Both the position numbers and the translations under genes were made by a program. This document shows positions 15,299 through 63,067 of a DNA stretch of 64,000 nt, piece by piece. Every line of letters starts with the position of its first letter. Position 1 is the stretch's first letter. The DNA lies in contig JAFDAM010000001.1 in assembly GCA_019313825.1 (NCBI GenBank), positions 13,121-77,120 of the forward strand, in the 5' to 3' direction. The stretch comes from Deltaproteobacteria bacterium (GTDB lineage: Bacteria > Desulfobacterota > DSM-4660 > Desulfatiglandales > HGW-15). The notes under the pieces were generated by a model that saw only the letters and a program-made list of their open reading frames with translations, searched no databases and was not told where the DNA came from.

Positions 15299-15556
15299 TC
15301 AGATATTAATAATATCCTTTTCTTTCATTCGGCTGATGATGAATTTTAAAAAGTACAAAAACAGCCACAAACAGCCCACTATTGAGATTACTCCGGCCAG
15401 GATTGGTACCCAGAAACCGTCCTGTTGAAGATGATTCAGACCAACATTGATGGAGATAAGAGCTATCAAAATGATATAGCCTATTATAAGTCCCAGGACG
15501 ATAAGAAGAGACCAGAGACTAAAATTTTTCAGAGGAAATGGCTCCTGGTAGATCAA
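15299..15556 (-). CDS. Small membrane protein translationally coupled to dnaA paralogue 1
   Basis: Two to three hydrophobic helices. Its start overlaps the dnaA-1 stop (ATGA overlap at 15553-15556). Confidence 0.5.
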   Translation of the reverse strand: MIYQEPFPLKNFSLWSLLIVLGLIIGYIILIALISINVGLNHLQQDGFWVPILAGVISIVGCLWLFLYFLKFIISRMKEKDIINI

Positions 15557-16902: not shown

Positions 16903-16959
16903 TATAAACTCCAAAGATGCAATAAATGAATATAATGTACCCCCATTTCCTAAGGACAT

Positions 16960-25109: not shown

Positions 25110-26357
25110 GTGTTTTTCAAGGTAAAAACCTCTGAAGAGGTCTTGGAAATTCTTAAAGGCTTTGGTCCATCGGGAGATGAGAAGATATCCATTGAGCTCG
25201 CCCTGGGACGGACCTTAAGCAGAGACGTCTTGGCCCCGGAGAACCTTCCTGGTTTTTACAGGTCTTCCATGGACGGCTATGCGGTAAGGGCCAAAGATAC
25301 GTTTGGTGCGACTGAAAGCCTGCCGGCGCTTCTTGATCTAACAGGCGAGGTTATCATGGGACAACGTCCTGACATCATCGTCAGACCCGGTACGGCCGTG
25401 AAGATCTCCACCGGTGGCATGCTTCCCGAAGGTGCTGATGGTGTGGTTATGTTGGAATACAGCCATCCCCTGGACGAAAAGACCATTGAGATCAGCCATG
25501 CCATATCCCCCTTGGAGAATGTGATACAGCCGGACGATGATTTTAAAAAGGGGAAGACTGTCCTTGAAAAAGGTCACACATTACGACCTCAGGATCTGGG
25601 TGTAATGTCCGGCCTTGGCATATCCCGGGTTTCGGTCTTTCAGAGACCAAAAGTCGCTATCATATCCACGGGGGATGAAGTTGTCCCTATTGATCAAAGG
25701 CCTGAACCGGGACAGGTCCGGGATATAAACAGCTATACACTGAGCGCCTTTTGCCGACAGGCCGGCGCTGAACCGATTAATCTGGGATTGTGCGGTGATA
25801 ATTTCGAGCAACTCAAAGATACAGTAAAGCAAGGCCTGGACAGGGCGGATACCGTATGGATATCGGGAGGCAGTTCAGTAGGAACCCGGGACCTGACCCT
25901 GAAGGTCTTTGAAACCTTTGATAATATGGAACTGCTTGTCCACGGTATCTCCATCAGTCCGGGTAAACCCACAATCATCGCGAAGATCGGTTCCCGCGCC
26001 ATATTCGGTCTTCCCGGTCATACAGCCTCTGCCATGGTGGTGGCGGAAGTCTTTCTCGCTCCGTTCCTGGCCGGGCTATCAGGAGAAAGGGCTCTTTCCG
26101 GGACATCATATGAGGTAGAGGCCGAACTGAGCAGAAACATCGAATCGGCAAGCGGGAGAGATGACTATTTAAGGGTAAGATTAGAAAAAAAGGGTGACGG
26201 ATTAATGGCCGAACCTATCTTCGGCAAATCAGGACTTATCTCCACACTGGTGGAGGCCCATGGTTTGCTCCGGGTGGACAGGAATACTGAGGGGCTTTAC
26301 CAGGGTCAGAAGGTAAGAGTTATGGTCTTTAACCCTATAAAAGGAGGCTCCGGTTGA
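25110..26357 (+). CDS. moeA: Molybdopterin molybdotransferase MoeA
   Basis: MoeA N/MoCF-binding/C domains (SMDGYAVRA.., ISTGDEV.., SGGSSVG..D). GTG start after AAGGAG. Confidence 0.85.
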   Translation: MFFKVKTSEEVLEILKGFGPSGDEKISIELALGRTLSRDVLAPENLPGFYRSSMDGYAVRAKDTFGATESLPALLDLTGEVIMGQRPDIIVRPGTAVKISTGGMLPEGADGVVMLEYSHPLDEKTIEISHAISPLENVIQPDDDFKKGKTVLEKGHTLRPQDLGVMSGLGISRVSVFQRPKVAIISTGDEVVPIDQRPEPGQVRDINSYTLSAFCRQAGAEPINLGLCGDNFEQLKDTVKQGLDRADTVWISGGSSVGTRDLTLKVFETFDNMELLVHGISISPGKPTIIAKIGSRAIFGLPGHTASAMVVAEVFLAPFLAGLSGERALSGTSYEVEAELSRNIESASGRDDYLRVRLEKKGDGLMAEPIFGKSGLISTLVEAHGLLRVDRNTEGLYQGQKVRVMVFNPIKGGSG

Positions 26358-28288
26358 AGAGGCATGTTTACCTGGCCATGAAGACCCTTGAAGAGGCCAA
26401 AGAGATATTTTTTTCCAGATTCGGACATGAATATAGGAGCGGCGCTGAAGAGATCTCCACCGAAGAATCACTGGGCCGCGTTACCGCGGAGCCCATATTT
26501 GCCAGGATATCCGCGCCCTCTTACCACTCTGCTGCCATGGACGGTATCGCGGTAAATGCGGAAGATACCTATGGCACCACGGAGAAGAATCCGAAGATCC
26601 TCAGGATCGGTAAAGACGCCCTGTGGATCAACACCGGTCACGCGATCCCCGACGGCTTTAACGCGGTCATCATGATCGAAAAGGTCCATCAACTGGATGA
26701 CGAGAACATAGAGATCCGTTCTCCGGCCCATCCCCGGCAACATATAAGAAAGGTGGGTGAGGATATAGTCGCCACCCAGCTGCTCCTTCCCCGGAACCAA
26801 AGGATCCGACCCTATGATATGGGCGCACTCGTCTCAGCAGGCGTTTTCTCTCTCAAGGCATGGAAGAGACCAAGGGTGGTTATTATTCCCACTGGATCCG
26901 AGCTTGTGCACCATAGGGATCTCAAGGAGCCGGAACAGCTGAAAAAGAATCAGCTCCTCGAATCCAATTCCCTCACCCTTTCAGGTCTTATCCGTGAGTG
27001 TCACGGTATCCCGATAATCTACGATATCGTCTCCGATATCGAGCGGGATATCCGCGAGGCCCTGGAAAGGGCTGTCGATTCCAAGGCGCATCTGGTCATT
27101 ATCAATGCCGGGTCATCTGCCGGCAGTAAAGATTATACGGCCAACATCATTGAAGAGATGGGAGAGGTCCTTGTCCATGGTGTGGCCATGATGCCCGGCA
27201 AGCCTACTATTCTGGGGACCATAAAGGGTAAGCCCGTAGTCGGCAATCCCGGCTATATGGTTTCAGCCGCGTTATCCTTTGAGCAGTTTGTCAAACCACT
27301 GCTATACGGTCTTCAAGGTCTAAGGCCTCCCAGTACAAAATCCATAACAGTTCAGCCCTCCAGGGATATCCCCTCTAAGCTGGGGACCGAAGAATTTTTA
27401 CGGGTTAATATCGGCAGGGTGGGAGAGCAAGCAGTCGCCACGCCCCTGTCGCGGGCTGCCGGTTCCATTACCACCTTGACCAGGGCTGAAGGTATTCTTC
27501 GTATCCCGGCCCTTTCCGAGGGGGTGACCCAGGATGAACATGTGGAGGCAGAGCTTCTGGTGGAAGAGGAAGAGATCCGAAACACCGTGGTCGTTATCGG
27601 CAGTCACGATATTACCATTGATATCCTTGCTGATGAGATCCGTAGGCGGGGCGACAACATCCGAATCTCTTCCGGGAATGTCGGTAGTCTGGGTGGCCTT
27701 ATGGCGCTCAGAAAAGGGATATGCCATATATCAGGATCACATCTCCTGGATACGGAAACAGGTGAATACAATATTTCCTATATCAAGAGATATCTCAAAA
27801 ACATCAAGGTAGGCGTTTTTCACCTGGTCCTGAGGGATCAGGGCCTGATCGTTGCCAGGGGAAATCCCAAAGGCATAAAAGGTATCATGGATCTCACCAG
27901 AGATGACATAACCTTTGTTAACCGTCAGGCAGGATCCGGCACCCGCGTGCTCCTTGATTACAGACTGGAACAGTCCGGAATAAACCCTGACTCCATCGAG
28001 GGATATGATCACGATGAGTTCACGCATATGGCAGTTGCCGTGGATGTCCTGAGCGGCGCGGCAGATTGCGGCATGGGTATCTTTGCGGCGGCCAAGGCGC
28101 TTGGTCTGGATTTTGTTCCCATGGTGAGAGAACAATATGACCTGATCATTCCGTCCTCCATTTTAGAGAATCCTAATATTCAAGTGGTCATTGAGACAAT
28201 CAGATCACCTGGTTTTAAGAACAGGGTTAAGGGCCTTGGCGGATATGACCCATCAAAAAGCGGTAAATTCTGGATGGAGGTAGGTTGA
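26354..28288 (+). CDS. MoeA-like protein fused to a C-terminal periplasmic-binding-protein-like (molybdate/tungstate-binding type) domain
   Basis: The N-terminal ~400 aa are MoeA-like (AMDGIAVNA, IPTGSEL, NAGSSAGSKD). A C-terminal ~230 aa PBP-like domain follows. 4-nt overlap with moeA. Confidence 0.75.
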   Translation: MKRHVYLAMKTLEEAKEIFFSRFGHEYRSGAEEISTEESLGRVTAEPIFARISAPSYHSAAMDGIAVNAEDTYGTTEKNPKILRIGKDALWINTGHAIPDGFNAVIMIEKVHQLDDENIEIRSPAHPRQHIRKVGEDIVATQLLLPRNQRIRPYDMGALVSAGVFSLKAWKRPRVVIIPTGSELVHHRDLKEPEQLKKNQLLESNSLTLSGLIRECHGIPIIYDIVSDIERDIREALERAVDSKAHLVIINAGSSAGSKDYTANIIEEMGEVLVHGVAMMPGKPTILGTIKGKPVVGNPGYMVSAALSFEQFVKPLLYGLQGLRPPSTKSITVQPSRDIPSKLGTEEFLRVNIGRVGEQAVATPLSRAAGSITTLTRAEGILRIPALSEGVTQDEHVEAELLVEEEEIRNTVVVIGSHDITIDILADEIRRRGDNIRISSGNVGSLGGLMALRKGICHISGSHLLDTETGEYNISYIKRYLKNIKVGVFHLVLRDQGLIVARGNPKGIKGIMDLTRDDITFVNRQAGSGTRVLLDYRLEQSGINPDSIEGYDHDEFTHMAVAVDVLSGAADCGMGIFAAAKALGLDFVPMVREQYDLIIPSSILENPNIQVVIETIRSPGFKNRVKGLGGYDPSKSGKFWMEVG

Positions 28289-28354
28289 GGCCAGCCTTCA
28301 TCAGAAACTCTGAATAATGAATCCACGCCCAAAGGGGTGTATCTGTCTGAAGAA

Positions 28355-28535
28355 GGCAATGGCTGTCTTTTCAAGGCGATATCTTTTTGAAATTCCACAG
28401 GCCTCTGCAGTGGTCAAATATTTAGGTTTTATGCCTGAGAACCGCTTGGAATCTGCAACTTACGTGGTAAAGCCCAAATATTTGTCCACTTCCCTAAAAG
28501 GTAGTAGATATCGCCTTGAAGAGATGGGCATTGCC
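28355..28535. repeat. Family A hairpin element, copy 3
   Basis: Collinear with copy 1, including both the outer and inner stems. Sits inside the Mo-cofactor gene cluster. Confidence 0.85.
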
Positions 28536-28655
28536 GAATTAGACTAACCTTTTCAGACATAACCAATTTTCTCTGACTTCCCACAAGAGGCGGGAATCTT
28601 AGACACTCTCAGAGGACGTGGTTTTCCGGTTATAATAAAAAAGGAGTCGATCAAG

Positions 28656-28994
28656 ATGGTATCCTTTGGAATACATTCAAAACACTGGGTTGTGGATGAA
28701 GACGATAACATCATCATGGGAGAGGGCAGGATGGAGATCCTGGAAGATATTGAAAAAACAGGATCCATAAACCAGACCGCAAAAAACATGAAGATGTCAT
28801 ACAAGGGCGTCTGGGGCAGGATCAAGGCAACAGAGAAGGCCATGAAGCTCAAGATCGTGGACACTGACAGGAAGATGGGGTCCCGCCTTACCGAGGAAGG
28901 CAAGGACCTCCTCGCAAAATACACCCTGCTGAAAAAAGAGTGCCTGGAGGCAGATGATAAGGTCTTCAGGTCAATCTTTAAACATACAGAATAA
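28656..28994 (+). CDS. ModE N-terminal-like winged-HTH regulator (molybdate-responsive type)
   Basis: SINQTAKNMKMSYKGVWGRIKATE resembles the ModE/LysR-type HTH. Short (112 aa), with no Mop domains. Confidence 0.6.
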   Translation: MVSFGIHSKHWVVDEDDNIIMGEGRMEILEDIEKTGSINQTAKNMKMSYKGVWGRIKATEKAMKLKIVDTDRKMGSRLTEEGKDLLAKYTLLKKECLEADDKVFRSIFKHTE

Positions 28995-28998
28995 CGTC

Positions 28999-29550
28999 AT
29001 GAAAGAGAAAGATACGGATAAAAGGATAAATGACCCTGAAAAAGGATCACGGCTCCCTATCCTTGTTACCATTGTAGGCAGGTCCGAATCAGGCAAGACC
29101 ACCCTCATGGAAAAACTTATCCCTGAGTTCAGGAAAAGGGGGTTACGTGTAGGGACCATTAAACATCATCTCCACGACTTTGATATCGATCACCCGGGCA
29201 AGGACAGCCGGAGGCACAAGCAGTCCGGCTCAGAAACGACCATTATATCATCCCCCCATATGATCGGCATGGTAATGGATGTTGATCATGATCATAGTCT
29301 TGAGGAATTGCTTCCTTTTTTCAATGGTAAGGATATCGTTATTTCAGAAGGCTATAAGAAAGCGGACATCCCAAAAGTGGAGATATTCAGGCCCGAGGTC
29401 CACGACAGACCCGTCTGTGAGAACGATGAGACGCTGATCGCCATTATGACGGATGCGGATGTCCATCTTGACGTGCCAAGGTTTGGAACAGGCGATGTTA
29501 AAAGACTGGCAGATTTTCTTGTCAGACACTTCGAGCTGGATAAGAGATAA
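28999..29550 (+). CDS. mobB: Molybdopterin-guanine dinucleotide biosynthesis adapter MobB
   Basis: P-loop GRSESGKTTL, then GTIKHH..D.D.PGKDS. Start at MKEKD just after the upstream stop. Confidence 0.8.
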   Translation: MKEKDTDKRINDPEKGSRLPILVTIVGRSESGKTTLMEKLIPEFRKRGLRVGTIKHHLHDFDIDHPGKDSRRHKQSGSETTIISSPHMIGMVMDVDHDHSLEELLPFFNGKDIVISEGYKKADIPKVEIFRPEVHDRPVCENDETLIAIMTDADVHLDVPRFGTGDVKRLADFLVRHFELDKR

Positions 29551-41872: not shown

Positions 41873-42307
41873 ATGGTTAATTCCTTCACCCTAACCGGCC
41901 TGATCCGATATATAAAACTAAAACTGCTTGGCAGGGACATCATCATATCCGGCAGCTGCCTTCAATGCGGCCTCTGCTGTCGGAAATTATGCCTTGAAAT
42001 AAAAGGCAGGTGGGTAACTTCTGAAAATACGTTTTACAAACTTGTTAAGGCCAACTCTGATTATGAGCGTTTTAAGATTATCGGCCGAGATGAACAAGGC
42101 TTTCTCGAGTTCGCATGTACATGTCTTCAGGAAGACGGCTCCTGCCGCGATCACGATAATCGCTTAAAGATCTGCAGGGATTTTCCGGAAAAGGACATGT
42201 TTTTTATGAATGGTATCCTGCCCGAGGGATGCGGGTATTCTGTCCAAGAATGGGTATCCTTCGAAAAGATACTAAAGAAAACCATAAGGAAAAAAGGGCA
42301 AAAATGA
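41873..42307 (+). CDS. YkgJ-family cysteine-cluster protein (UPF0153)
   Basis: CLQCGLCC..C N-terminal cluster and C.C....GSC...D.R...C..FP, typical of the family. Confidence 0.7.
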   Translation: MVNSFTLTGLIRYIKLKLLGRDIIISGSCLQCGLCCRKLCLEIKGRWVTSENTFYKLVKANSDYERFKIIGRDEQGFLEFACTCLQEDGSCRDHDNRLKICRDFPEKDMFFMNGILPEGCGYSVQEWVSFEKILKKTIRKKGQK

Positions 42308-42470
42308 CAGAGACGCCTCCCATTGCAAGTCCTGCGGGCATGTTATTTATCAGGAGAATGACGGGGATTAGTTGTGAAAAGCAAAGAATCCACACCCAAA
42401 GGGAGTAGTTTTAAGTGGAAATTAGATGGTGGGTTTGGGAAAGCAGGGAAAGCAGGAAAGCAGGGTCCCC

Positions 42471-42499
42471 TTGACAGAAGGCCATTCTTTTCTTAGATT
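42471..42499 (+). promoter_or_regulatory. Sigma-70-like promoter candidate for the nifX-like operon
   Basis: TTGACA-17 nt-TAGATT, about 50 nt upstream of the ATG at 42548. Preceded by three tandem GGAAAGCA-type repeats (42438-42466). Confidence 0.35.
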
Positions 42500-42547
42500 T
42501 ATATGGTTTAAAAAATATCAACTTTGGATAAGGAGAGGAATAATAAC

Positions 42548-42928
42548 ATGATCATTGTATTTCCGGCCCAGGAGAATAACGGTATAGAGAGTCCGGTATA
42601 CGGTCACTTCGGTTCAGCACCCCATTTTATTGTCGTGGACAGTAAAAGCAATACTGTTAAGGCTGTTGTGAATACGGACAAAGATCATCGACACGGACAG
42701 TGACAGCCCTTGACCGCCCTGGCAGGGCGGGCCGTAGACGCTATCATCGTGGGGGGAATCGGCGCCGGTGCGCTTAACAAACTGAATGCCAAAGGAATAA
42801 TGGCATACCGTGCCGTGGAAGGTACTGTTAATGAAAACCTTGCATTGATCAAATCCGGGTTGCTCCCCTTGTTCACATTGGACCAGACCTGCGCAGGACA
42901 TGGCTCAGGTGAAGAATGTAATCATTAA
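42548..42928 (+). CDS. NifX/NifB-type (dinitrogenase FeMo-cofactor-binding domain) protein with in-frame TGA at 42701-42703: candidate selenoprotein (alternatively a nonsense-disrupted gene)
   Basis: SD AAGGAGAGG followed by ATG. The frame reads ..SPVYGHFGSAPHFIVVD..DHRHGQ-TGA-QPLTALAGRAVDAIIVGGIGAGALNKL... Both halves form one domain, and a hairpin follows the TGA. Confidence 0.55.
42714..42730 (+). promoter_or_regulatory. SECIS-like stem-loop downstream of the in-frame UGA
   Basis: CCGCCC-UGGCA-GGGCGG. The stem begins 10 nt after the UGA and the apical loop 16 nt after it. The loop contains GG. Confidence 0.45.
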
Positions 42929-42938
42929 CGGAGGTAAA

Positions 42939-43382
42939 ATGTCTCAATGTAAAAATATCAGCATACAGGATCCGGAAAGCCTGCGGGAAATGCTTTCCCT
43001 TTCAGGGTATGCTGATAAGGCAATTGATTATTTTATAAACAAGACGAATATGGGCACCCTGCCCGACGCAGATCAAGTGACGGAATTGACAGGGCCTTGC
43101 GGCGATACCATGAGGATCTATCTGAAACTGGAAGATGGACGTATTAATGACGCCAAGATTCAGGTCCTTGGCTGTCCCGCGGCGATCGCATCTGCCATGG
43201 CCACTATAGACTATATCAAGGGCATGACCCTGGAAGAAGCCTTGAAGGTTCAAGACCGGGATATCTTCCGAATGCTGGAAGCTCTTCCTGACCAGAAGCA
43301 GCACTGTATTCGGCTGACTATTAAGACCCTTCAAAAGGCGATCGATGAATATGGGAGTAAAGACAATCAGGAAGGAGAATAG
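42939..43382 (+). CDS. NifU/IscU-like Fe-S scaffold domain protein (paralogue of 4940-5383)
   Basis: GPCGDTMRIYLKL, LGCPAAIAS and QKQHCIRL motifs. Start at MSQCK after GGAGG. Confidence 0.7.
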   Translation: MSQCKNISIQDPESLREMLSLSGYADKAIDYFINKTNMGTLPDADQVTELTGPCGDTMRIYLKLEDGRINDAKIQVLGCPAAIASAMATIDYIKGMTLEEALKVQDRDIFRMLEALPDQKQHCIRLTIKTLQKAIDEYGSKDNQEGE

Positions 43383-43384
43383 AT

Positions 43385-43639
43385 ATGCCTCTTTTTGATT
43401 ACCTGTGCGTAGAATGTGGAAAATCCAGTGAAATCCTTGTCACTGCTTCAGATGACAGGCCGCAGTGTCAGGCCTGTGGCAGCATTAATCTCAAAAAACT
43501 GATTTCAGCCCACTCTTCACTGTCCGGGACGCAGACATCCTCGATCCCTGGGCTCGGTGATACAGCATGCTGCGGTTCCTCACCAGCACAGGCCGGTTGT
43601 GCCGGTCCCGGCAGCTGCTGCGGGAAGTTACAGGCATAG
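43385..43639 (+). CDS. FmdB-family zinc-ribbon protein with a Cys-rich tail
   Basis: MPLFDYLCVECG...CQACGS is the FmdB/CxxC-CxxC signature. The C-terminus carries CC..C..CC. Confidence 0.7.
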   Translation: MPLFDYLCVECGKSSEILVTASDDRPQCQACGSINLKKLISAHSSLSGTQTSSIPGLGDTACCGSSPAQAGCAGPGSCCGKLQA

Positions 43640-44237: not shown

Positions 44238-46358
44238 ATGATTCAAGCGACACTTTTTATGATGGGATTGGGTGCATTTTGCGGCCTTGTGCTGAGTGCC
44301 GCATCGCGAATATTCTACGTGTATGAAGATCCCCGAATCGAACTTGTGGAAGAATGCTTTGCCGGTGCCAACTGCGGTGGATGCGGTTTTGCCGGATGTT
44401 CTGCCGCTGCCGTAGCGGTAGTGAAAAATAAGGCCGCCCCTAATCTCTGTATAGTGGGTGGGGCGGAATCCGCAACAAACGTTTCAGACGTAATGGGCGT
44501 GGAGGCCGAATTGGCAGAGCCCTTAACCTGCTTTAATCCCTGTCAAGGCGGGGACCGTGCCCAAGATAAATTTATTTATATAGGCGTCAACAGTTGCAAA
44601 GCCCAGTCCATGCTTTACGGCGGCAAACGGACATGCGCGGTCGGATGCCTTGGGCATGGAGACTGTGTCCGGGCATGTATGTTTGATGCCCTGAAGATGG
44701 GACCGGATGGTTATCCGATTGTAGACGAGAAAAAATGCGTCGGGTGCGGCGCCTGTGAACGTGCATGCCCAAAAGAGATCCTGAATATAAAGACTCCTTC
44801 GGAACGGCTCCTTCATTTCAACCAGTACAGTGATCGTCTCGCCCCATGCAGACAGACCTGCCCCGCTGAGATAAACATCCCCCTCTATATAGCCCAGATC
44901 CGAGAAGGGGATTATGAGGGGGCGGTCCATACCATCAGGGAAAGGAATCCACTCCTCCTCTCCTGTGGCCGCGTATGCCCCCATCCCTGTGAAGACATCT
45001 GTCGTCGGGGAATAGAGGACGAAGCAGTATCCATCAACCAGCTTAAACGTTTTGCGGCAGACTATGAGATGACATCAGGTAAGCGTCTTCCAATATCTGT
45101 AGCCCCTTCCACAAATAAAAGGATTGCGGTGGTGGGTGGTGGACCTGCCGGGCTCAGTTGCGCTTACTTTCTGAGGAGATTGGGACATGATGTGACCATC
45201 TTTGAGGCAATGCAGAAGCTTGGCGGTATGATCCGTTACGGGATTCCTGAATACCGTCTTCCAAAAAAGATACTTGACTGGGAGATAGAAGGTATACTCA
45301 ATCTCGGTATAGAGAGTCATACAGGTGTAAGGTTCGGAATTGATTTTGATCTTACATCTCTTGTCGCCTCCGGTTATGATGCGATCTTTCTGGGTCTTGG
45401 CGCGTGGAAAGACTATACCTTGGGCGTTGAAGGCGAAGACCTTAACGGTTGTTACACTGGCATCGATTTTCTCTCAAGACTTACACGAGGAGAAAAAATA
45501 CCCATGGGTAAAACCGCGATTATCATTGGTGGTGGAAACTCTGCCATTGACTGTTCAAGAAATCTTCTTCGCTATGGGGTTGAAAAGGTCTATATTGTTT
45601 ATAGAAGAACCCGCAAAGAGATGCCCGCCAATGAGATGGAGATAGAGGCCGCAGAACATGAAGGCGTGGAGCTCTTCTTCCTCGCGGCGCCGGTGAGTGT
45701 TAAAAGCGATGAAGATGGAAATGTTACGCATCTTGAGTATCTTAAGATGGAACTTGGCGAACCTGATGCAAGCGGAAGACAAAGGCCGGTCCCGATTGAA
45801 GGCACGGAAACTCTTCTTCAGACCGATATGGTTATCACCGCCATTGGTCAGACCCCTGATATCTTTTTTAAAGACGATGAAACCCAGAAACGCCTTAATC
45901 AACTTAAGACTACCCGCTGGAACACTATAGATACGGACCCTGCTACACTTCAGAGCAGTATCCCTTATATATTCACAGCCGGTGATTCTGCCACAGGCCC
46001 TGCCCTTGTTGTTTCCGCCATTGGCGGAGGCCGCAGGGCAGCCCGTTCAATTCACCAGTTTGTAATGGGGGAAGAAGTTAAGGCATCGGATAATGAACTT
46101 TTCAACAAGAATATACCCGGAACCATATTTGACAAAGCAGAAGGTATTTCACGAAAATCCAGGTCCGCAATGGTAGAGCTTCCGGCAGCTGAAAGGATCA
46201 AGTCTTTTCTTGAAGTGGATCAAGTCCTGACAGAGGATGCTGCCGTTCAAGAGAGCCAAAGATGTCTCTCTTGCTGCCTGACATGTTACGACCCGGACCA
46301 GTACCTTACCAACATATCCCCCGCGGGCTACCATCGCAGTGAGTCAAAGGCCGCTTGA
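44238..46358 (+). CDS. Fusion protein: RnfB-like membrane-anchored Fe-S domain + 2x[4Fe-4S] ferredoxin + glutamate-synthase-small-subunit-like (GltD) NAD(P)H/FAD oxidoreductase
   Basis: N-terminal TM followed by CGGCGFAGC (RnfB-type), CVGCGACERACP, then GltD-like RIAVVGGGPAGLSCAYFL..YGIPEYRLPK and a second dinucleotide fold IIGGGNSAIDC. Confidence 0.8.
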   Translation: MIQATLFMMGLGAFCGLVLSAASRIFYVYEDPRIELVEECFAGANCGGCGFAGCSAAAVAVVKNKAAPNLCIVGGAESATNVSDVMGVEAELAEPLTCFNPCQGGDRAQDKFIYIGVNSCKAQSMLYGGKRTCAVGCLGHGDCVRACMFDALKMGPDGYPIVDEKKCVGCGACERACPKEILNIKTPSERLLHFNQYSDRLAPCRQTCPAEINIPLYIAQIREGDYEGAVHTIRERNPLLLSCGRVCPHPCEDICRRGIEDEAVSINQLKRFAADYEMTSGKRLPISVAPSTNKRIAVVGGGPAGLSCAYFLRRLGHDVTIFEAMQKLGGMIRYGIPEYRLPKKILDWEIEGILNLGIESHTGVRFGIDFDLTSLVASGYDAIFLGLGAWKDYTLGVEGEDLNGCYTGIDFLSRLTRGEKIPMGKTAIIIGGGNSAIDCSRNLLRYGVEKVYIVYRRTRKEMPANEMEIEAAEHEGVELFFLAAPVSVKSDEDGNVTHLEYLKMELGEPDASGRQRPVPIEGTETLLQTDMVITAIGQTPDIFFKDDETQKRLNQLKTTRWNTIDTDPATLQSSIPYIFTAGDSATGPALVVSAIGGGRRAARSIHQFVMGEEVKASDNELFNKNIPGTIFDKAEGISRKSRSAMVELPAAERIKSFLEVDQVLTEDAAVQESQRCLSCCLTCYDPDQYLTNISPAGYHRSESKAA

Positions 46359-46402: not shown

Positions 46403-46533
46403 CTGGATGGAGCGTTCAGCTCTCAGCGGTCAGCGGTCAGCCAAATACCTTGAAATTAAATGCCTTTTGCTGACGGCTGAATGCTGATAGCTGATAGCAT
46501 GAATCCAAAAACAGCTGTTTTTGGATGAACACT
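46403..46533. repeat. Inverted-repeat element, left copy (pairs with 62928-63067)
   Basis: Its reverse complement is collinear with the right copy (AGTGTTCATCCAAAAACAG.TGTTTTTGGATTCATGCTATCAG...CAGCCGTCAGCAAAAGGCATTT...GAACGCTCCATCCAG). Contains heptamer arrays cagcggt x2 and ctgatag x2. Confidence 0.85.
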
Positions 46534-52844: not shown

Positions 52845-54152
52845 TCAGTTTAAAAAATTTTCAATATTATTAATATCTTCCCTTATATCTTTTCTTTTGT
52901 TTTTTAATTTATCTATCTTTTTAACCGCGTAGATTATTGTTGAGTGATCTTTATCTCCATATAGATATCCAATCTCAGAAAAAGAAAGATCTGTATGTTT
53001 TCTGCATAGATACATAGAAATATGTCTTGGGTAAGAATAAAACCTCTTTTTTTTATCAGAAATAAGCTCAGATACTGAGATATTAAAATACCCGGACGTA
53101 ATAGATTGTATATCTTTTACACTTAACTTAATACCTTTATTATTTTTAATAATAGATTTTATCATAGAGATATTAATATCTCCGTTATTCAGAGATGAAT
53201 AAGTTTCAAATCTAACAATATTTTTTAATAAACTTTTTATATTATCATTGGTTTTAACTAATAAAGATATTATATCCTTTGGAATATTAATTTTATTCTC
53301 TTTTATTTTTCTTTTAATAATATTTAATTTTGTATTTTGATCATATTCCTTAATCTCGATTAAAAGACCCCATCCTAATCTCGACTTTAATTGAGAATTA
53401 ATATTATTGATTCTGTTTAAAGGTCTGTCTCCGGTTACGACAATCTGTTTGTTTTCCATGTATAGATCATTAAATATAGAGAGAAATTCTTCCTGTACCC
53501 TTTTTCGGTTGGAGATATGTTGAATATCGTCAAATAATAATATATCTATATTAAGATATTTTTCTCTAAATTTATCAAAAATATTATTTCTTACTGAATA
53601 ATTATAATCAGACAGAAAGGTTTTAGATGATACATATCCTATTCGAAAATAAGGATCTTTATTAAGTATCTGATTACCTATTGCATTTAATAGATGAGTC
53701 TTACCAAGGCTTAGATTAGAAAAGATGTAGATAGGGTTATAATGGTTTCCCGGTCTATTAGCCACTTCAAAAGATGAGGAAAAGGCAAACCTATTACACT
53801 CCCCTATTATAAAACTGTCAAAAGTCATAGATATGTTTATATTATATTTAAATAAATCTGATTGTTTGGTTTGCTGTGGCTGAGATGATATGACTGTGGT
53901 TGACGGGTTATTATGTGAAAAGACTATCTCAGGAGCCTCTTTTAGTATCCGTTTAAAAGATTGTTTTATCTCTTCGAGGTAGTTATCGCGTAACCATTTG
54001 ATAATGAACTTGTTTGGGACCCCTATAATTGCGACATTATTATCCAGTTTATTAAGGGTTATCTGTGAGAACCATGTTTCAAATTCAGGTCTGGGTATTC
54101 GCTGTTTTAGACTTCTTGTGATCTGGTCCCAAATCCCAATTTCTGTTGACAT
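52845..54152 (-). CDS. dnaA: Chromosomal replication initiator DnaA paralogue 2 (canonical synteny, very AT-rich, atypical P-loop and Arg-finger region)
   Basis: Walker B LLFDDIQHI, SLGKTHLLNAIGN, RL.WGL and domain IV DKDHSTIIYA. The P-loop starts SNLSLGKT, and the box VII position reads NIKSLLKNI (Lys where Arg is expected). Confidence 0.85.
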   Translation of the reverse strand: MSTEIGIWDQITRSLKQRIPRPEFETWFSQITLNKLDNNVAIIGVPNKFIIKWLRDNYLEEIKQSFKRILKEAPEIVFSHNNPSTTVISSQPQQTKQSDLFKYNINISMTFDSFIIGECNRFAFSSSFEVANRPGNHYNPIYIFSNLSLGKTHLLNAIGNQILNKDPYFRIGYVSSKTFLSDYNYSVRNNIFDKFREKYLNIDILLFDDIQHISNRKRVQEEFLSIFNDLYMENKQIVVTGDRPLNRINNINSQLKSRLGWGLLIEIKEYDQNTKLNIIKRKIKENKINIPKDIISLLVKTNDNIKSLLKNIVRFETYSSLNNGDINISMIKSIIKNNKGIKLSVKDIQSITSGYFNISVSELISDKKKRFYSYPRHISMYLCRKHTDLSFSEIGYLYGDKDHSTIIYAVKKIDKLKNKRKDIREDINNIENFLN

Positions 54153-55273: not shown

Positions 55274-56824
55274 TTGGCCTTTGAAATTCCAAAACAACCC
55301 TATTCCGGAGAGATAGGAGAGACCACCATCGGTACAGGTAAGGGCGCTGTTACGCTGGGAGGGGAAGATTCATACCCTTTCCATACCTTTGAAGGAAAGA
55401 TGCCGAACCCTCCAAAGATCGCCATGGAGGTCTGGGATTACGATCCAACAGAGGAGTGGCCGGCAGCGGCAGTTGAGCCCTTTAAGGATGTAATATCATC
55501 GCCGGATGCATGGGCAAAAAAATGTGTTGATGAACATGGGGCTGACATGATAGTGCTCCAACTAAAGAGTACCGACCCCAACGGAATGGACAGGGGTGCG
55601 GACGAGGCCGCTGAAGTAGCGAAAAAGGTGGCTGATGCCGTTGACGTGCCGCTGGTCTTATGGGGTACGGCAAATAACCAGAAAGACGAAGAGGTCCTTA
55701 AAAAGATCTCAGAGGTATGTGAAGGGAAAAATGTGGCGCTTGGTCCGGTTGAAGAGGGGAATTACAAGGCAGTCGGTGCAAGCGCCTTGGGTTATAATCA
55801 CATTATTATCTCATCATCACCCATTGACGTGAATCTGGCCAAGCAGTTGAATATTCTCCTTGGAAACCTCGGGGTCCAGAGCAATAAAATCATCATAGAT
55901 CCCACGACAGGCGGACTCGGTTACGGCATGGAATACGGCTACTCCGTCATGGAGCGGATCCGTATGGCTGCCCTGACACAGGAAGACGAAAAACTCCAGA
56001 TCCCCATGATCAACAATATAGGTAATGAGGTATGGAAGTGCAAGGAGGTCAAGCAGCCCATAGATGAGGCCCCTGCGCAGGGTGACCCGGAGAAACGGGC
56101 TATCATGATGGAGGCGACAGCCGCTGTATGTTATCTGCTTGCCGGATCTGATGTGGCCATCCTCAGGCACCCTGAGAGCGTGCGTCTGACCCGTTCTTTC
56201 ATCGATCTCATGATCAACGGCGGTATGGCCACCGACGTTACGGAGATTGCAAAGAACCTGGACCTTGAAGAGGCTGATCTGACTGCCATATCGCCTGAGC
56301 CGAACCTTGACTTTGGTGAAAAAGAGGCATCCAGAGAGAAGCCTGCCAAGCCCAAGAAGAAGGAAGCGCCCAAGCCCAAAAAGGAAGCAAAGACGGCCGC
56401 GCCCAAACTCAAGAAGAAGGAAGAGCCTAAGGTAAAGGCCAAAGATGAGGCCAAGGCAAAGGCCGAGGATGAGGCCAAGGCAAAGGCCGAGGATGAGGCC
56501 AAGGCAAAGGCCGATGCCGACGCCAAGGTAAAGGCCGAAGAGGGTGCCAAGGCTGAGGCGGATGCTAAGGCAAAGGCCGACGCTGCGGCAAAGGCCGAAG
56601 ATGATGCCCGGAAAAAGGCCGAGGCCGACGCCAGGGCAAAACGCGAGGCTGGAGAGGATGAGCAGAGGCAGAAGAGGGCGGCTGAGCGGGAAAAACTCGC
56701 GGCAGAGAGAAAAAAGGTCCCTGAAAAGCCTGATACAATGACCCCTGCGGCTGTGCAGAAGACAGAGCAGGAAAAGATATTAGAGCATCTGAACAGGATA
56801 CACAGGAGAATACCTTTATATTAA
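55274..56824 (+). CDS. acsD: Corrinoid iron-sulfur protein small subunit (AcsD/CdhD type) with a ~190-aa Lys/Ala/Glu-rich C-terminal extension
   Basis: TTG start after AAAGGAGGT. The N-terminal ~330 aa are AcsD-like (TIM-barrel pterin-binding-like, ..LVLWGTAN.., ..IIDPTTGGLGYG..). The tail is low-complexity AKAKAEDE repeats. Confidence 0.8.
   Translation: MAFEIPKQPYSGEIGETTIGTGKGAVTLGGEDSYPFHTFEGKMPNPPKIAMEVWDYDPTEEWPAAAVEPFKDVISSPDAWAKKCVDEHGADMIVLQLKSTDPNGMDRGADEAAEVAKKVADAVDVPLVLWGTANNQKDEEVLKKISEVCEGKNVALGPVEEGNYKAVGASALGYNHIIISSSPIDVNLAKQLNILLGNLGVQSNKIIIDPTTGGLGYGMEYGYSVMERIRMAALTQEDEKLQIPMINNIGNEVWKCKEVKQPIDEAPAQGDPEKRAIMMEATAAVCYLLAGSDVAILRHPESVRLTRSFIDLMINGGMATDVTEIAKNLDLEEADLTAISPEPNLDFGEKEASREKPAKPKKKEAPKPKKEAKTAAPKLKKKEEPKVKAKDEAKAKAEDEAKAKAEDEAKAKADADAKVKAEEGAKAEADAKAKADAAAKAEDDARKKAEADARAKREAGEDEQRQKRAAEREKLAAERKKVPEKPDTMTPAAVQKTEQEKILEHLNRIHRRIPLY
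56444..56515 (+). repeat. Three tandem 24-nt coding repeats (GATGAGGCCAAGGCAAAGGCCGAG) inside the acsD tail
   Basis: Perfect x2 plus one copy with one end mismatch. Encodes (DEAKAKAE)x3. Confidence 0.9.
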
Positions 56825-57027
56825 TAAAATCATTTCATGATTTTATATAACGCGGCTTCGCCGCTCTAAGCTTCGCCATGGGCGGAGCGTTATATAAAAT
56901 TGCGTAGCAATTTTATCCCTGTGCACGGCACGGGGTATTCTGGCTGAGTTATTTTGAAAGTCCCGCGAAACGGGACGTTACATGAAATCGTGTAGCGATT
57001 TCATAAAACTATGAGGAGGAACCTCTG
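56825..57027. repeat. Mosaic of small hairpin modules in the acsD-acsA intergenic spacer
   Basis: AAAATCATttcATGATTTT; a GC unit AACGCGGCTTCGCCGC..GGCGGAGCGTT; AAAATTGCgtaGCAATTTT; CCCTGTGCACGGCACGGGGTATTCTGGCT (also at 36895-36927); GTCCCGCGAAACGGGAC; GAAATCGtgtaGCGATTTC. Confidence 0.8.
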
Positions 57028-59055
57028 ATGGCAGAAGAGAAAAAAGAAAAGGCAGCCAAACCGTTGAAACTAGCTGATCCGGTCGCGGCTTCCATGGATG
57101 TGGCAACCCAGGAGATGATAGTGCGATCCCATGACCTGGGTATAGAGACGGTCTTTGACAGGGCCCAGACAATGAAACCATGTAATATCGGAATCCAGGG
57201 CACATGCTGTAAGAATTGTTCCATGGGTCCATGCCGCCTTCCCTTGCCCAAGAGCGGGATAGAGGGGGAAGACACACGAAAAGGCCTTTGTGGCGCCACG
57301 GCCAACACCATCGCTGCGCGTAATTTTATCAGGATGATCGCCGGCGGCGCCGCGGCGCACTCCGATCACGGCCGCTGCGTTGCAGAGGTCTTTATGTCGG
57401 CTGCTCGAAAAGAGACAGAAGCCTATAAGATAAAGGACACGGTAAAACTCCTTGCAATCGCCCCACATCTCGGCGTCGAGACTACGGTTGAGGTTGATGG
57501 CGAGACAAAGGACAGGGATATCGATGAGATCGCCCTTGAAGTGGCTGAAAAGGCCCTTAACGAATGGGGCAAGGCAGAAGGTGAGCTGCTCTACCCTAAG
57601 AGAGCCCCGGAGGCGTTGTATGAGAAGTGGAAAAAGAACGGTGTGCTTCCCAGGAACATAGACAGGGAGATTGTTGAGATCATGCACCGAACCCACATGG
57701 GCGTTGACCAGGACTACAGGAACCTGATCAAGCAGGGCACCAGGGCGGCCATTGCGGACGGCTGGGGCGGCTCCATGCTGGCGACGGACCTTCAGGACGT
57801 TCTCTTCGGGACACCATCACCTATCTTGTCGGAAGCGAACCTCGGTGTCATGAAGGAGGACCATGTAAACATCATTGTACACGGACATGAGCCCGTATTA
57901 TCCGAGATGATCGTGGCTGTCTCCCAGAAGCCGGAGATAATAGAGTATGCCAAATCCAAGGGTGCCAAGGGCATCCAGTTGGGCGGTATATGCTGTACAG
58001 CCAATGAGATCCTACAGCGTCACGGGATCCCCACTGCGGCGACATTCCTCCAGCAGGAGCTCGCCATCATCACAGGGGCGTGCGATGCTATGGTTGTGGA
58101 TATCCAGTGTATCTTCCAGAACCTTGCAAACGTTGCAAAGTGCTTCCACACCAAGCTGATTACCACCCATCCCATAGCCAAGATGGAGCAGGACAACGTC
58201 ATCCACATCGAGTTTGACGAGCATCACGCGCTTGAGGACGCCGAGAGGATCATCAGGATGGCAATCGATAACTTTGAAAACAGAGGCACTGAAGTTATGA
58301 TACCGAAACACAAGGCGACCCAGGTCGCTGGTTTCGGTGTTGAATCCATAGAGTACCACCTCGGCGGTACATTCCGCGGCTCATATTACACCTTGAACGA
58401 TAATATAATCAATGGCCGCATCCGGGGTATCGCCGGCGTGGTGGGTTGCAACAACGCCAGGACAAGACACAATGAAGGCCATATCACGGTCGTAAAAGAG
58501 CTGATCAAGAACGACGTGATAGTGCTTACAACCGGTTGCAACGGCATCGCCTGTGCCATGGAGGGGCTGCTGACACCCGAGAGCGCCGCTGTCCATTGCG
58601 GTCCCGGCCTGGCAGAGGTCTGCGAGACAGTAGGTATTCCGCCTGTCCTGCACCTCGGATCATGTGTCGATAATAGCCGTATCCTGCTGGCCGCAACAGA
58701 GGTGGTAAAGGCAGGAGGACTCGGAAATGACATCTGTGATCTGCCTGTCGCAGGCAGCGCCCCTGAGTGGATGAGCGAAAAGGCCATCAGCATCGGTCAT
58801 TATTTCGTTGTGTCAGGCGTGTATACGGTCTTCGGCGTCACCCTGCCCACATCAGGTGCACCAGTATTCCATAACTACATCAGCAAGGATCTGGAGAAGA
58901 TCTACGGTGGGATGTGGGATATCGAGCCTGACCCGATTAAGCACGCACGGCTTATGATCGCCCATATCGACAAGAAACGTAAGGAACTCGGCATAGACAA
59001 GGCCAGAGAGAGGGTTCTTATGGATATGGCGGATCGCCAGGCCTTGGACGCTTAA
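57028..59055 (+). CDS. acsA: Carbon monoxide dehydrogenase catalytic subunit (AcsA/CooS type)
   Basis: N-terminal Cys clusters (CNIGIQGTCCKNCSMGPCRL), C-cluster ligand regions (HGHEP, GGICCTANE, GCNN, GSCVDN). Confidence 0.92.
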   Translation: MAEEKKEKAAKPLKLADPVAASMDVATQEMIVRSHDLGIETVFDRAQTMKPCNIGIQGTCCKNCSMGPCRLPLPKSGIEGEDTRKGLCGATANTIAARNFIRMIAGGAAAHSDHGRCVAEVFMSAARKETEAYKIKDTVKLLAIAPHLGVETTVEVDGETKDRDIDEIALEVAEKALNEWGKAEGELLYPKRAPEALYEKWKKNGVLPRNIDREIVEIMHRTHMGVDQDYRNLIKQGTRAAIADGWGGSMLATDLQDVLFGTPSPILSEANLGVMKEDHVNIIVHGHEPVLSEMIVAVSQKPEIIEYAKSKGAKGIQLGGICCTANEILQRHGIPTAATFLQQELAIITGACDAMVVDIQCIFQNLANVAKCFHTKLITTHPIAKMEQDNVIHIEFDEHHALEDAERIIRMAIDNFENRGTEVMIPKHKATQVAGFGVESIEYHLGGTFRGSYYTLNDNIINGRIRGIAGVVGCNNARTRHNEGHITVVKELIKNDVIVLTTGCNGIACAMEGLLTPESAAVHCGPGLAEVCETVGIPPVLHLGSCVDNSRILLAATEVVKAGGLGNDICDLPVAGSAPEWMSEKAISIGHYFVVSGVYTVFGVTLPTSGAPVFHNYISKDLEKIYGGMWDIEPDPIKHARLMIAHIDKKRKELGIDKARERVLMDMADRQALDA

Positions 59056-59090
59056 TTAATAAATAATAATCCTCAACGAAGGAGGAAGAT

Positions 59091-61304
59091 ATGTCAAAGT
59101 TAGTAGCATTTGCTGCCATTCAGGGCGGCTACAAGGTTGTTTCAACGGTCGAGGGTGAATTGCGAAACGCCCTCGATAGTTATGATGCAAGCACAAAGAT
59201 AGGGTTTCCGAATACAGCCTATTACCTTCCGGTTATCTATTCACTGACCGGCATGAAGTGTGAGACCCTTGAAGACCTTCAGAAACCCATGGAATTTGCC
59301 CACGGACTTCTTCCGCCGCATATAAAGAGCAAGAACCACCTGCCCTATCTCGGGCCGCTTCTGGACGCGGGCATGGCAGCCATCTTTGCCTATGAGGTAA
59401 AAGAGGCGTTGCGTATTCTAAGGGAGCCGGACTTCTATATCGCAGAGGAAGACCCGGACCTTGATGCGGGAAAGATGTGGGTAGGCCCGGCTGATGACAC
59501 GATCCTCAGAAAGAGGGGTGTTGAGTTTGTTGACGGTTCCGCCCCGGGTTTTGCCGCAATCGTGGGCGCTGCGCCTGATCCGGAGATCGCCAAGATGATA
59601 GTTGAAGACTACCAGAAGAAGAGTCTCTATATCTTCTGTGCCGCGAACCACAATGGCAGGACCCTTATTGAGCAGTGTATCGAGGCAGGCATGCAGGTCG
59701 GCTGGAATACGAGGATCGTTCCCTTCGGACCGGACATCTCGTCCGCCGTATTTGCCCTCGGTTTTGCCAACAGGGCCGCGATGGCATTCGGCAATGTCCA
59801 GCCCGGTGACCATAGCAAGATGCTCATGTACAACAAGGACAGGATCTTTGCCTTTGTCAACGCCCTGGGTGATATCGGGACGGAATGGGCCTGCGCTGCC
59901 GCAGGATGCGTAAACTGGGGTTTCCCCACACTTGCGGACACGGATATCCCGGAGATCCTCCCCACCGGTATCTGTACATACGAGCACGTGGTGGCAAACG
60001 TGCCCCATGACGAGATGTGCCAGAGGTCGGTTGAGGTCAGGGGCCTGAAGGTCACCATAGCCGAAATCGATATCCCATGCTCCTTTGGTCCTGCCTTTGA
60101 GGGAGAACGCGTAAGGGGCGCTGACCTGTATGCCCAGTGCGGGGGCGGCAAGAGCCAGTGTACGGAGCTCGCCAAGATGGCCGACATGAAGGAGATAGAG
60201 GACGGAAAGGTCGAGGTTGTCGGACCGGAACTGAATGAAGTCGAAGAAGGAGGCATCTTTCCGCTGGGCATCTATGTCCAGTGTGCGGGCCGTGAATTCC
60301 AGACCGATTTTGAGCCGATCCTGGAACGCCAGATCCATCACCTGGTCAACTATATCCAGGGCATCATGCACATAGGACAGAGGGATATCGCATGGATCCG
60401 AGTGAGCAAGGCGGCCGTTGACAAGGGCTTTTCCATAAAGGATATCGGCACCGTGATTCACGCCAAGTTCCATCAGGATTTCAAAAAGATCATAGACAAG
60501 GTCCAGGTAACCCTCTACACCAAGAAGGATGACGTAGACGCGCTGACAAAGAGGGCCAGGGCCGAATACAAGACAAGGGATGAGCGCGTGGAGAACATGA
60601 GGGACGAGGATGTGGAGACCTACTACTCATGCACCCTCTGCCAGTCATTTGCCCCATCCCACGTCTGTTCCGTAAGCCCTGAAAGGACGGGGCTCTGCGG
60701 TGCGTATAACTGGATGGACTGTAAGGCATCATATGAGATCAATCCCACGGGACCCAACCAGCCCATTGAGAAGGGAGAGTGCCTTGACCCGGTGCTGGGC
60801 CAGTGGAAGGGTGTCAACGAGTTTATTGAAAAGGCGTCCAGGGGCACCGTCACCCATTACAACTTCTACTCCATGCTGCTCGATCCCATGACCACGTGCG
60901 GCTGCTGTGAGTGTATCGCGGCAGTGCTGCCGTCATGTAACGGCGTGATGACCGTGCACAGGGATTATCGTGGCGAAACCCCCTGCGGCATGAAGTTCAC
61001 GACCCTGGCAGGTGTCATGGGCGGCGGCGCTGCTTCGCCGGGCTTTGTGGGTCACTCCAAGTTCAATATTACCCAGGGCAAGTTTATCCTGGGGGACGGC
61101 GGACTCCTGAGAATGGTATGGATGCCCAAGTCCTTGAAGGAGGAGATCAAGGAGAGGATCGATAAACGCGGCGCGGAGATGGGTTGTCCTGATCTGTATG
61201 ACAGGATCGCCGATGAGACGGTTGGAATCACAGAGGACGAGATTCTTCCTTTCCTCCGGGAGAAGGAGCATCCGGCCGTGAAGATGGATTCCATTGTGGG
61301 TTAA
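59091..61304 (+). CDS. acsB: CO-methylating acetyl-CoA synthase (AcsB, bacterial alpha subunit)
   Basis: A-cluster motifs (SCTLCQSFAPSHVC...GLCG, CGCCEC) and the typical ~730-aa length. Confidence 0.92.
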   Translation: MSKLVAFAAIQGGYKVVSTVEGELRNALDSYDASTKIGFPNTAYYLPVIYSLTGMKCETLEDLQKPMEFAHGLLPPHIKSKNHLPYLGPLLDAGMAAIFAYEVKEALRILREPDFYIAEEDPDLDAGKMWVGPADDTILRKRGVEFVDGSAPGFAAIVGAAPDPEIAKMIVEDYQKKSLYIFCAANHNGRTLIEQCIEAGMQVGWNTRIVPFGPDISSAVFALGFANRAAMAFGNVQPGDHSKMLMYNKDRIFAFVNALGDIGTEWACAAAGCVNWGFPTLADTDIPEILPTGICTYEHVVANVPHDEMCQRSVEVRGLKVTIAEIDIPCSFGPAFEGERVRGADLYAQCGGGKSQCTELAKMADMKEIEDGKVEVVGPELNEVEEGGIFPLGIYVQCAGREFQTDFEPILERQIHHLVNYIQGIMHIGQRDIAWIRVSKAAVDKGFSIKDIGTVIHAKFHQDFKKIIDKVQVTLYTKKDDVDALTKRARAEYKTRDERVENMRDEDVETYYSCTLCQSFAPSHVCSVSPERTGLCGAYNWMDCKASYEINPTGPNQPIEKGECLDPVLGQWKGVNEFIEKASRGTVTHYNFYSMLLDPMTTCGCCECIAAVLPSCNGVMTVHRDYRGETPCGMKFTTLAGVMGGGAASPGFVGHSKFNITQGKFILGDGGLLRMVWMPKSLKEEIKERIDKRGAEMGCPDLYDRIADETVGITEDEILPFLREKEHPAVKMDSIVG

Positions 61305-61482
61305 TAAAATTGCTATGCAATTTTATAGAACGCACCGCCTGCGGCGGAGCACAGAGCGGCGAAGCCGTATTATAGAAAAATATGTTATACAATTTTATAC
61401 AACGCTCCGCCTGCGGCGGAGCTTAGAGCGGCGAAGCCGCATTATATAAAATCGTGAAACGATTTTATTAGAGGAGATAATT
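61305..61482. repeat. Alternating AT-hairpin / GC double-hairpin modules in the acsB-acsC spacer (two tandem GC units)
   Basis: AAAATTGCtatGCAATTTT; [CGCACCGCCtgcGGCGGAGC..GCGGCgaaGCCG]; ..; [CGCTCCGCCtgcGGCGGAGCTTAGAGCGGCgaaGCCGC]; AAAATCGtgaaaCGATTTT. The GC unit is the reverse complement of the one at 56848-56894. Confidence 0.85.
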
Positions 61483-62927: not shown

Positions 62928-63067
62928 AGTGTTCATCCAAAAACAGGTGTTTTTGGATTCATGCTATCAGTCCCGCTACAGCGGGACATTCAGCCGTCAG
63001 CAAAAGGCATTTCATTACAAGGGATTTGGCTGATCGCTGACCGCTGAGATCTGAACGCTCCATCCAG
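62928..63067. repeat. Inverted-repeat element, right copy (pairs with 46403-46533), carrying an extra CCCGCTACAGCGGG mini-hairpin
   Basis: Collinear with the reverse complement of the left copy. A 17-nt insertion TCCCGCTACAGCGGGAC lies at about 62970-62986. Flanked by heptamer arrays at 62838-62870, 62909-62927 and 63093-63118. Confidence 0.85.

Follow-up and report, generated by a model that had tools for sequence, protein, structure and literature searches.

A 64,000-nucleotide (nt) stretch of the 85-kb contig JAFDAM010000001.1 (positions 13,121 to 77,120, forward strand; GenBank assembly GCA_019313825.1) from a Deltaproteobacteria bacterium was analyzed; this whole stretch is referred to here as the window, and all coordinates are positions within it unless a locus is named. 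At 42548-42928, the window carries a gene of the PF02579 family whose reading frame contains an in-frame TGA, which we examined as a candidate codon for selenocysteine (Sec). The gene is followed by two further genes of an operon, and the same TGA was found at two orthologous loci from other samples (L003 and L004). The features of the locus are as follows.

42471-42499, + strand: candidate sigma-70-like promoter, TTGACA-17-TAGATT (consensus matched at 10 of 12 positions; located ~49 nt 5' of the ATG)
42530-42538, + strand: Shine-Dalgarno sequence AAGGAGAGG; a purine-rich Shine-Dalgarno sequence is also kept in L003 and L004
42548-42928, + strand: PF02579 (NifX/NafY/ORP-fold) gene with Sec proposed at codon 52; 126 codons, with homologues of 126 amino acids (aa)
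42701-42703, + strand: in-frame TGA, proposed Sec codon for residue 52 in the motif H-x-H-G-x-U-Q-P; Cys column in homologues, TGA in L003 and L004
42714-42730, + strand: hairpin CCGCCC-U-GGC-A-GGGCGG of the bacterial Sec insertion sequence (bSECIS) type; stem of 7 base pairs (bp), 6 of them G-C, with loop GGC or U-GGC-A
42939-43382, + strand: NifU/IscU-type Fe-S scaffold gene (PF01592, 101.7 bits; TIGR03419 NifU_clost), product identical to MBW2608770.1
43385-43639, + strand: FmdB-family zinc-ribbon gene with a Cys-rich C-terminal tail (PF09723, TIGR02605; MBW2608771.1)

The frame that begins with the ATG at 42548 extends over 126 codons to the TAA at 42926-42928 and contains only one in-frame TGA, at codon 52. 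The Shine-Dalgarno sequence lies 9 nt upstream of the ATG, and the translation reads MIIVFPAQENNGIESPVYGHFGSAPHFIVVDSKSNTVKAVVNTDKDHRHGQ, TGA, QPLTALAGRAVDAIIVGGIG...GEECNH, TAA. A preliminary description of the locus, made from the letters and a list of open reading frames (ORFs), had given the same start, Shine-Dalgarno sequence, TGA, and end, and all of these were verified. It had also stated that the two halves form one domain; with Cys placed at the TGA, the read-through product matched Pfam PF02579 (Nitro_FeMo-Co) at 73.1 bits (cut-off, 26.3) in a single stretch running across the TGA (residues 14-101; profile positions 2-92 of 94). Its remark that the ORF list holds the back half only was mistaken, as both halves are listed (42524-42703 and 42710-42928). 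The IMG gene call at this locus consists of the 51-aa N-terminal piece only.

We screened the window for frames that one or two TGAs divide into pieces of 40 or more codons; the 42548 frame was the sole TGA-broken frame outside sequence taken by a longer gene. Of the window's 41 stop-to-stop frames that reach 200 codons or more, 12 end in TGA, which is thus an ordinary, common stop codon there, so a global reassignment of TGA was rejected. Promoter-like sites in the region were not commoner than in shuffled sequences, and the candidate at 42471-42499 is proposed from its placement, which is not proof. Directly 5' of its TTGACA lies a short tandem repeat, GGAAAGCAG, in ~3 copies (42438-42466).

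Conservation of the TGA codon and of the downstream frame

A search of 5.8 billion proteins identified 834 homologues of the 42548 product. The best 120 of these are nearly all 126 aa long, are annotated as NifB/NifX-family proteins, and come from Thermodesulfobacteriota, Desulfococcus, and metagenome-assembled genomes (MAGs) labeled "delta proteobacterium." In an alignment of 121 sequences, which includes the query with a placeholder Cys at the TGA, the TGA column is Cys in 120, within the motif H-x-H-G-x-C-Q-P; one homologue has Tyr. When the 51 N-terminal residues were used as query, an exhaustive HMMER search returned 150 representatives clustered at 50% identity; the motif H-x-[HQ]-G-x occurs in 119, and the next residue is Cys in 114 of those 119. 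Other than the 51-aa form itself, none of the 150 representatives ends at H-x-H-G-x. Cys therefore occupies the site of the TGA in homologues, as the preliminary description had stated, and the UGA aligned with Cys by which a bacterial selenoprotein gene is recognized is found in the 42548 gene.

The 90% cluster of the 51-aa piece contains two further 51-residue proteins, whose source contigs are JGI Ga0366829_1184269 (L003) and an ENA scaffold (L004). Both loci have TGA at the same codon as the 42548 gene, and in both the frame is intact to the same stop. The three TGA-form proteins are 87-90% identical to one another and ≤74% identical to any Cys form. Synonymous divergence (pS) among the three is 0.33-0.49 with no other stop codon or frameshift, and the ratio of nonsynonymous to synonymous divergence (dN/dS) is 0.06-0.14 over codons 1-51 and 0.06-0.16 over codons 53-126 (where pS is 0.36-0.52). 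Because dN/dS is low on both sides of the TGA, the part 3' of it is translated in frame in all three lineages. A conserved TGA in relatives, which the preliminary description had proposed to look for, is thus present in L003 and L004, and the sequence downstream of it evolves as selected coding sequence.

The presence of the TGA in three separate assemblies excludes a sequencing error. The TGA is one base away from TGC or TGT and its form is rare, as would be expected of a pseudogene or an assembly error in an ordinary Cys-form gene; we nevertheless regard this explanation as extremely improbable. The TGA is common to three independent assemblies from three samples, the synonymous divergence accumulated without another stop or frameshift, and the downstream dN/dS is low. 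In addition, the three-gene operon is intact, and a perfect hairpin specific to the TGA forms (see below) co-evolved with the TGA.

It is likewise very unlikely that the locus is a split gene encoding 51-aa and ~72-aa polypeptides that assemble non-covalently. The window does contain an in-frame TTG at codon 55, which is the start used in the ORF list, and the 51-aa piece appears as a gene in the output of gene callers. However, codon 55 is TTA in both L003 and L004, and L003 has no in-frame ATG, GTG, or TTG from the TGA to codon 100, which excludes separate initiation of the second half. No Shine-Dalgarno sequence precedes the TTG in the window. Codons 53-55, which separate the TGA from the TTG, are conserved at the protein level. 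A split would also leave the invariant Cys unreplaced, and the central sheet of the predicted structure described below is built from strands of both halves.

A bSECIS-type hairpin specific to the TGA forms

The hairpin at 42714-42730 begins 10 nt 3' of the UGA, with its apical loop at 16-17 nt, and has a predicted folding energy of -11.9 kcal/mol. In a published model of the bSECIS (PMC13188914, Fig. 2 legend), the apical loop has 3-9 nt and the upper stem 4-16 bp; at loop position 1 or 2 there is a G, mostly as part of the pattern N1-G-[G/U]-N-N2 with N1 and N2 paired; the distance from the UGA to the loop is 16-37 nt; and the minimum free energy (MFE) is ≤ -7.5 kcal/mol. The hairpin agrees with this model in all four respects, and its loop pattern is exactly U-G-G-C-A. 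The hairpin and its spacing, which the preliminary description had placed within the bacterial range, are thereby upheld.

Such an arrangement is uncommon in the window: of its 2,572 TGA trinucleotides, 4 precede, at the spacing of a bSECIS, a perfect stem that has 7 bp or more and includes 6 or more G-C pairs, and among those 4 only the TGA at 42701 is flanked on each side by a long open frame (63 and 74 codons). The 17 nt of the hairpin are 100% identical in the three TGA loci, and no other invariant run of nucleotides in the gene is as long. Fourfold-degenerate sites within the hairpin are unchanged across the three loci (5/5), compared with 38% elsewhere (P ~0.008).

We then compared the in-register segment between TGA and Cys forms, leaving out L006. 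All three TGA forms have 7/7 pairs and -11.9 kcal/mol, whereas the five Cys (TGC/TGT) forms, which include Desulfococcus multivorans (L007), have 1-5 of the 7 pairs, with energies of 0 to -2.6 kcal/mol. Among the Cys forms tested, the closest (L009, 1736-2116) already has 5/7 of the in-register stem pairs, in the segment CTGCCTTGTCAGGAAGG, which looks like a proto-hairpin. It seems that the conserved peptide A-L-x-G-R makes this site prone to form a hairpin. A role for the hairpin as an intrinsic terminator was rejected; there is no T-run, and a terminator scan was empty.

Predicted fold and genomic context

An AlphaFold2 (AF2) model was made of P0001, the closest Cys orthologue (71% identical, same length). 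The model is confident, with a predicted local distance difference test score (pLDDT) of 89.5 and a predicted template modeling (TM) score (pTM) of 0.83, and is a single alpha/beta domain with strands at residues 2-7, 26-31, 37-41, 65-68, and 85-88 and helices at residues 54-57, 73-81, and 94-102. Residue 52 is located in a loop just before the helix at 54-57. Because strands of the predicted sheet come from both sides of residue 52, neither half is likely to fold alone. Foldseek matched the model to TM1290/TM1816, PH0822, MTH1175, 1RDU, 1O13, 2WFB, 9IAN_F, and 1P90; both the profile score and the matching three-dimensional fold place the protein in PF02579 at the level of the fold.

The best structural match is the orange protein (ORP) of Desulfovibrio gigas (2WFB; query TM score [TMq], 0.79; root-mean-square deviation, 1.8 Å). 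ORP/Orp8, TM1290/TM1816, MTH1175, and PH0822 resemble the 42548 product in size and domain layout, and their sequences are related to it (E values of 4e-12 to 3e-3). However, Cys is absent from the Sec/Cys column of those relatives whose structures have been solved, and the best-matching Thermotoga chains, 1T3V/1O13, have Val there. Cys52 and the C-terminal tail C-x2-H-x5-C-x-H are therefore specific to the subfamily to which the 42548 product belongs. ORP holds a Mo-Cu cluster non-covalently, and other members of the family hold Mo-Cu-S clusters or thioferrate (PMC6345978); among the single-domain PF02579 proteins of anaerobes, such as ORP, none is known with Sec.

NifX (9IAN_F, in the NifEN complex), the NafY core (1P90), and the C-terminal domain of NifB belong to the same Pfam family. 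The NifX and NafY structures matched the P0001 model with a Foldseek probability of 1.00 and TM scores of 0.60-0.63, at ~20-26% sequence identity; in contrast to them, the 42548 subfamily has its own Cys52 and C-terminal tail. We found no nif genes in the window or at the orthologous loci, and so none of the neighbors that accompany NifX and NafY (nifB, nifEN, nifHDK). As nif context is absent and the neighboring genes encode NifU_N and Zn_ribbon_8 proteins, the 42548 product is not a nitrogenase NifX. The label NifX/NifB-type used in the preliminary description thus holds for the fold but not for the genomic context, nor for the Cys/Sec residue, which solved relatives with the NifX fold lack.

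In the subfamily, Cys is invariant at just three positions (52, 115, and 124); His 20, 47, and 118 are invariant as well, and His 49 and 126 are nearly so. A comparable set of residues occurs in MrpORP of Desulfovibrio, in which binding of a [3Fe-4S] cluster by the Di-Nase PF02579 domain has been attributed to three conserved Cys plus His (PMC6345978). The MrpORP model NF041136 was the sole NCBIfam match of the 42548 product (residues 17-95), but at 27.8 bits against a cut-off of 450; with only 126 aa and no P-loop NTPase domain, the product is not an MrpORP. The subfamily resembles the MrpORP Di-Nase domain in having three invariant Cys and conserved His, whereas the motifs differ (CxHFGHCE and CDH in MrpORP; HFG, HxHGxC, and CxxHx5CxH in the 42548 subfamily). 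Judged from this conservation, residue 52 most likely ligates, together with conserved Cys and His, a small Fe-S or other metal-sulfide cluster.

In the operon, the NifU-type gene starts 10 nt after the stop of the 42548 gene, and the FmdB gene starts 2 nt after the NifU stop. A NifU/IscU-like scaffold and an FmdB zinc ribbon tightly downstream had been noted before, and the PF01592 and PF09723 matches agree with that assignment. The order PF02579, NifU-like, FmdB recurs in L003, L007 (D. multivorans), and L011; in L009, the first two genes are present and then the contig ends. At the Cys-form locus L010 (8001-9033), which lacks the NifU-like gene, a gap of 211 nt separates the PF02579 gene from a gene for a longer Zn_ribbon_8 protein (146 aa), so that not every locus has the three-gene unit. 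This operon context points to a putative function in the handling of Fe-S or other metal-sulfide clusters.

Directly 5' of the operon, and outside the conserved synteny, a gene on the + strand (41873-42307) encodes a CxxCxxCC protein (PF03692, putative Zn/Fe-chelating). Two products near the 42548 gene belong to families for which Sec forms have been catalogued elsewhere, and both are all-Cys here: the FmdB-family protein (43385-43639, TIGR02605; UxxU elsewhere) and a protein with an RnfB-like Fe-S domain (44238-46358, NF005503; UxxC elsewhere). The latter is a 706-aa RnfB-like/GltD-like NAD(P)-binding fusion with a weak match to the model "diclust_near_Sec."

Elsewhere in the window, two full-length DnaA genes lie within 64 kb, both on the - strand (15553-16959 and 52845-54152); both exceed the TIGR00362 equivalog cut-off (389.6 and 418.4 bits vs 343.9). 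One is in a canonical dnaA-dnaN-gyrB-gyrA array, and the other is near parA/parB (19009-20620). A 24-nt palindrome with a 10-bp stem, ATCCAAAAAC-NNNN-GTTTTTGGAT, occurs twice (46503-46526 and 62935-62958; 0 expected by chance), once between the gene at 44238-46358 and the convergent gyrA and once after the gene for the gamma subunit of acetyl-CoA synthase (ACS); it looks like a shared bidirectional terminator or an element of the repetitive extragenic palindromic (REP) kind. A molybdenum-cofactor cluster is located ~13-17 kb upstream of the 42548 gene (25110-29550, + strand) and comprises a tandem pair of overlapping MoeA-type genes (415 and 644 aa) plus MobB, and carbon monoxide dehydrogenase (CODH)/ACS genes are located at 55274-62826. 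Taken from gene content, these two clusters point to a Wood-Ljungdahl anaerobe with a heavy demand for metal cofactors.

Probable selenocysteine decoding and its significance

Several observations weigh against reading the 42548 gene as a selenoprotein gene. The 64-kb window contains no selA, selB, selD, or tRNA-Sec (Rfam and ARAGORN scans of the window found tRNA-Pro only), and it contains no second selenoprotein gene to show Sec decoding. RNAalifold found no compensatory covariation in the hairpin, because the stem is invariant. The whole 66-nt region folds no better than shuffled sequences (z = +0.8), and the MFE of the whole segment does not distinguish TGA forms from Cys forms, a difference that emerges from the in-register comparison alone. 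The known TGA sequences number just three and belong to a single narrow clade, and a degenerate DNA pattern with TGA at codon 52 had 0 matches in 185,579 species genomes. Finally, the proposed role as a metal ligand is drawn from conservation and from a distant relative with different Cys positions.

As for the searches behind these counts, the degenerate pattern does match the window itself. Its two matches in metagenomes were rejected as chance, since no NifX-like ORF is present there. The metagenome collection is incomplete, because L003 fits the pattern yet was not returned. A word-index protein search with the 51-aa fragment, which has limited sensitivity, found only the fragment's own cluster, and a locus search with the 42548 protein alone identified two Cys-form loci and no others. 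The TGA form looks rare.

Stable hairpins 3' of stop codons can promote read-through in general. It is therefore conceivable that the UGA is read by a near-cognate tRNA (Trp, Cys, or Arg) independently of Sec, or that it mostly terminates translation, so that any full-length product would be minor and free of selenium. The window without Sec machinery and the hairpin without covariation fit this explanation; we consider it unlikely, though, because the replaced residue is a nearly invariant Cys, for which Sec is the only conservative substitute, and because the hairpin fits the specific loop pattern and spacing of a bSECIS. Moreover, purifying selection downstream of the TGA equals that upstream, which a rare leaky product would hardly sustain, and no other bacterial group is as rich in Sec as that of the host. 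A survey found 10 of 11 Deltaproteobacteria to be selenoprotein-rich and rare families of selenoproteins to occur only in Deltaproteobacteria and Clostridia, with replacement of Cys by Sec as the general trend (PMC1794560). By analogy, Sec decoding would have a favorable prior in a MAG labeled Deltaproteobacteria, the most selenoprotein-rich bacterial group.

On this evidence, we consider it highly probable that 42548-42928 is a selenoprotein gene of a family not yet catalogued. UGA-52 would be decoded as Sec by SelB and Sec-tRNA, recruited by the hairpin within the coding sequence at 42714-42730, and Sec-52 would stand in for one of the three Cys that ligate a small cluster, as a more nucleophilic ligand of lower pKa. 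The protein would probably receive, hold, or pass this cluster together with the co-transcribed NifU-type scaffold and FmdB protein. Based on the comparison of forms, the Sec form very probably arose recently from a Cys ancestor by a single change of TGY to TGA, and synonymous tuning of codons 56-61 (T/S-A-L-A-G-R) very probably produced the perfect hairpin while the A-L-x-G-R peptide was kept. A more specific proposal, that residue 52 ligates an Fe-S (or Mo/W-S) cluster directly as a selenolate, in a carrier with the NifX fold that works with the NifU-type scaffold, is put forward tentatively, as a possibility that is somewhat doubtful.

The 2026 catalogue of prokaryotic selenoproteins (PMC13188914, Table 1; 119 families and subfamilies) lists neither PF02579 nor NifX or NifB, in keeping with the earlier impression that this family is outside the known selenoprotein lists. 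The family is also not mentioned in the BSepDB main text, the Olavius-symbiont paper, or the deep-Sep text and supplements, and it may be listed in the supplements of BSepDB or of the review. The literature searched contains no co-mention of selenoprotein with NifX or of selenocysteine with COG1433; the nine papers that mention both selenoprotein and NifB look incidental, judged from their titles.

Catalogued predicted Sec forms include the CopZ-type (2Fe-2S)-binding protein, the HgcB ferredoxin, the NF005503 Fe-S domain, and the FmdB-family UxxU protein (PMC13188914, Table 1). Like the catalogued selenoproteins in which Sec replaces a Cys cluster ligand, the 42548 gene has its UGA at a conserved Cys of widespread homologues, with a bSECIS just downstream in the coding sequence, and it is rare and lineage-restricted and occurs in anaerobes. 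Unlike them, it belongs to PF02579, and its motif is H-x-H-G-x-U-Q-P, with no CxxU or UxxC redox motif. What is new is the family; the Sec mechanism is the standard bacterial one.

The 42548 gene also shows how gene callers split or truncate a gene of this kind. If the reading as a selenoprotein gene is confirmed, the bacterial selenoproteome would gain PF02579, the fold of nitrogenase cofactor chaperones and of the Desulfovibrio orange protein, and the use of Sec would be widened from redox motifs and catalytic Mo, W, or Ni sites to a small cluster carrier beside a NifU scaffold. If residue 52 is indeed a selenolate ligand, this would be the first selenoprotein in metallocluster assembly or trafficking and a natural swap of Se for S at a cluster ligand, caught soon after its origin, its SECIS having been shaped through synonymous changes from an A-L-x-G-R proto-hairpin that was already there. 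The identities within the Sec clade and to the Cys forms indicate that this clade is young, so that the birth of a selenoprotein would be visible at this locus.

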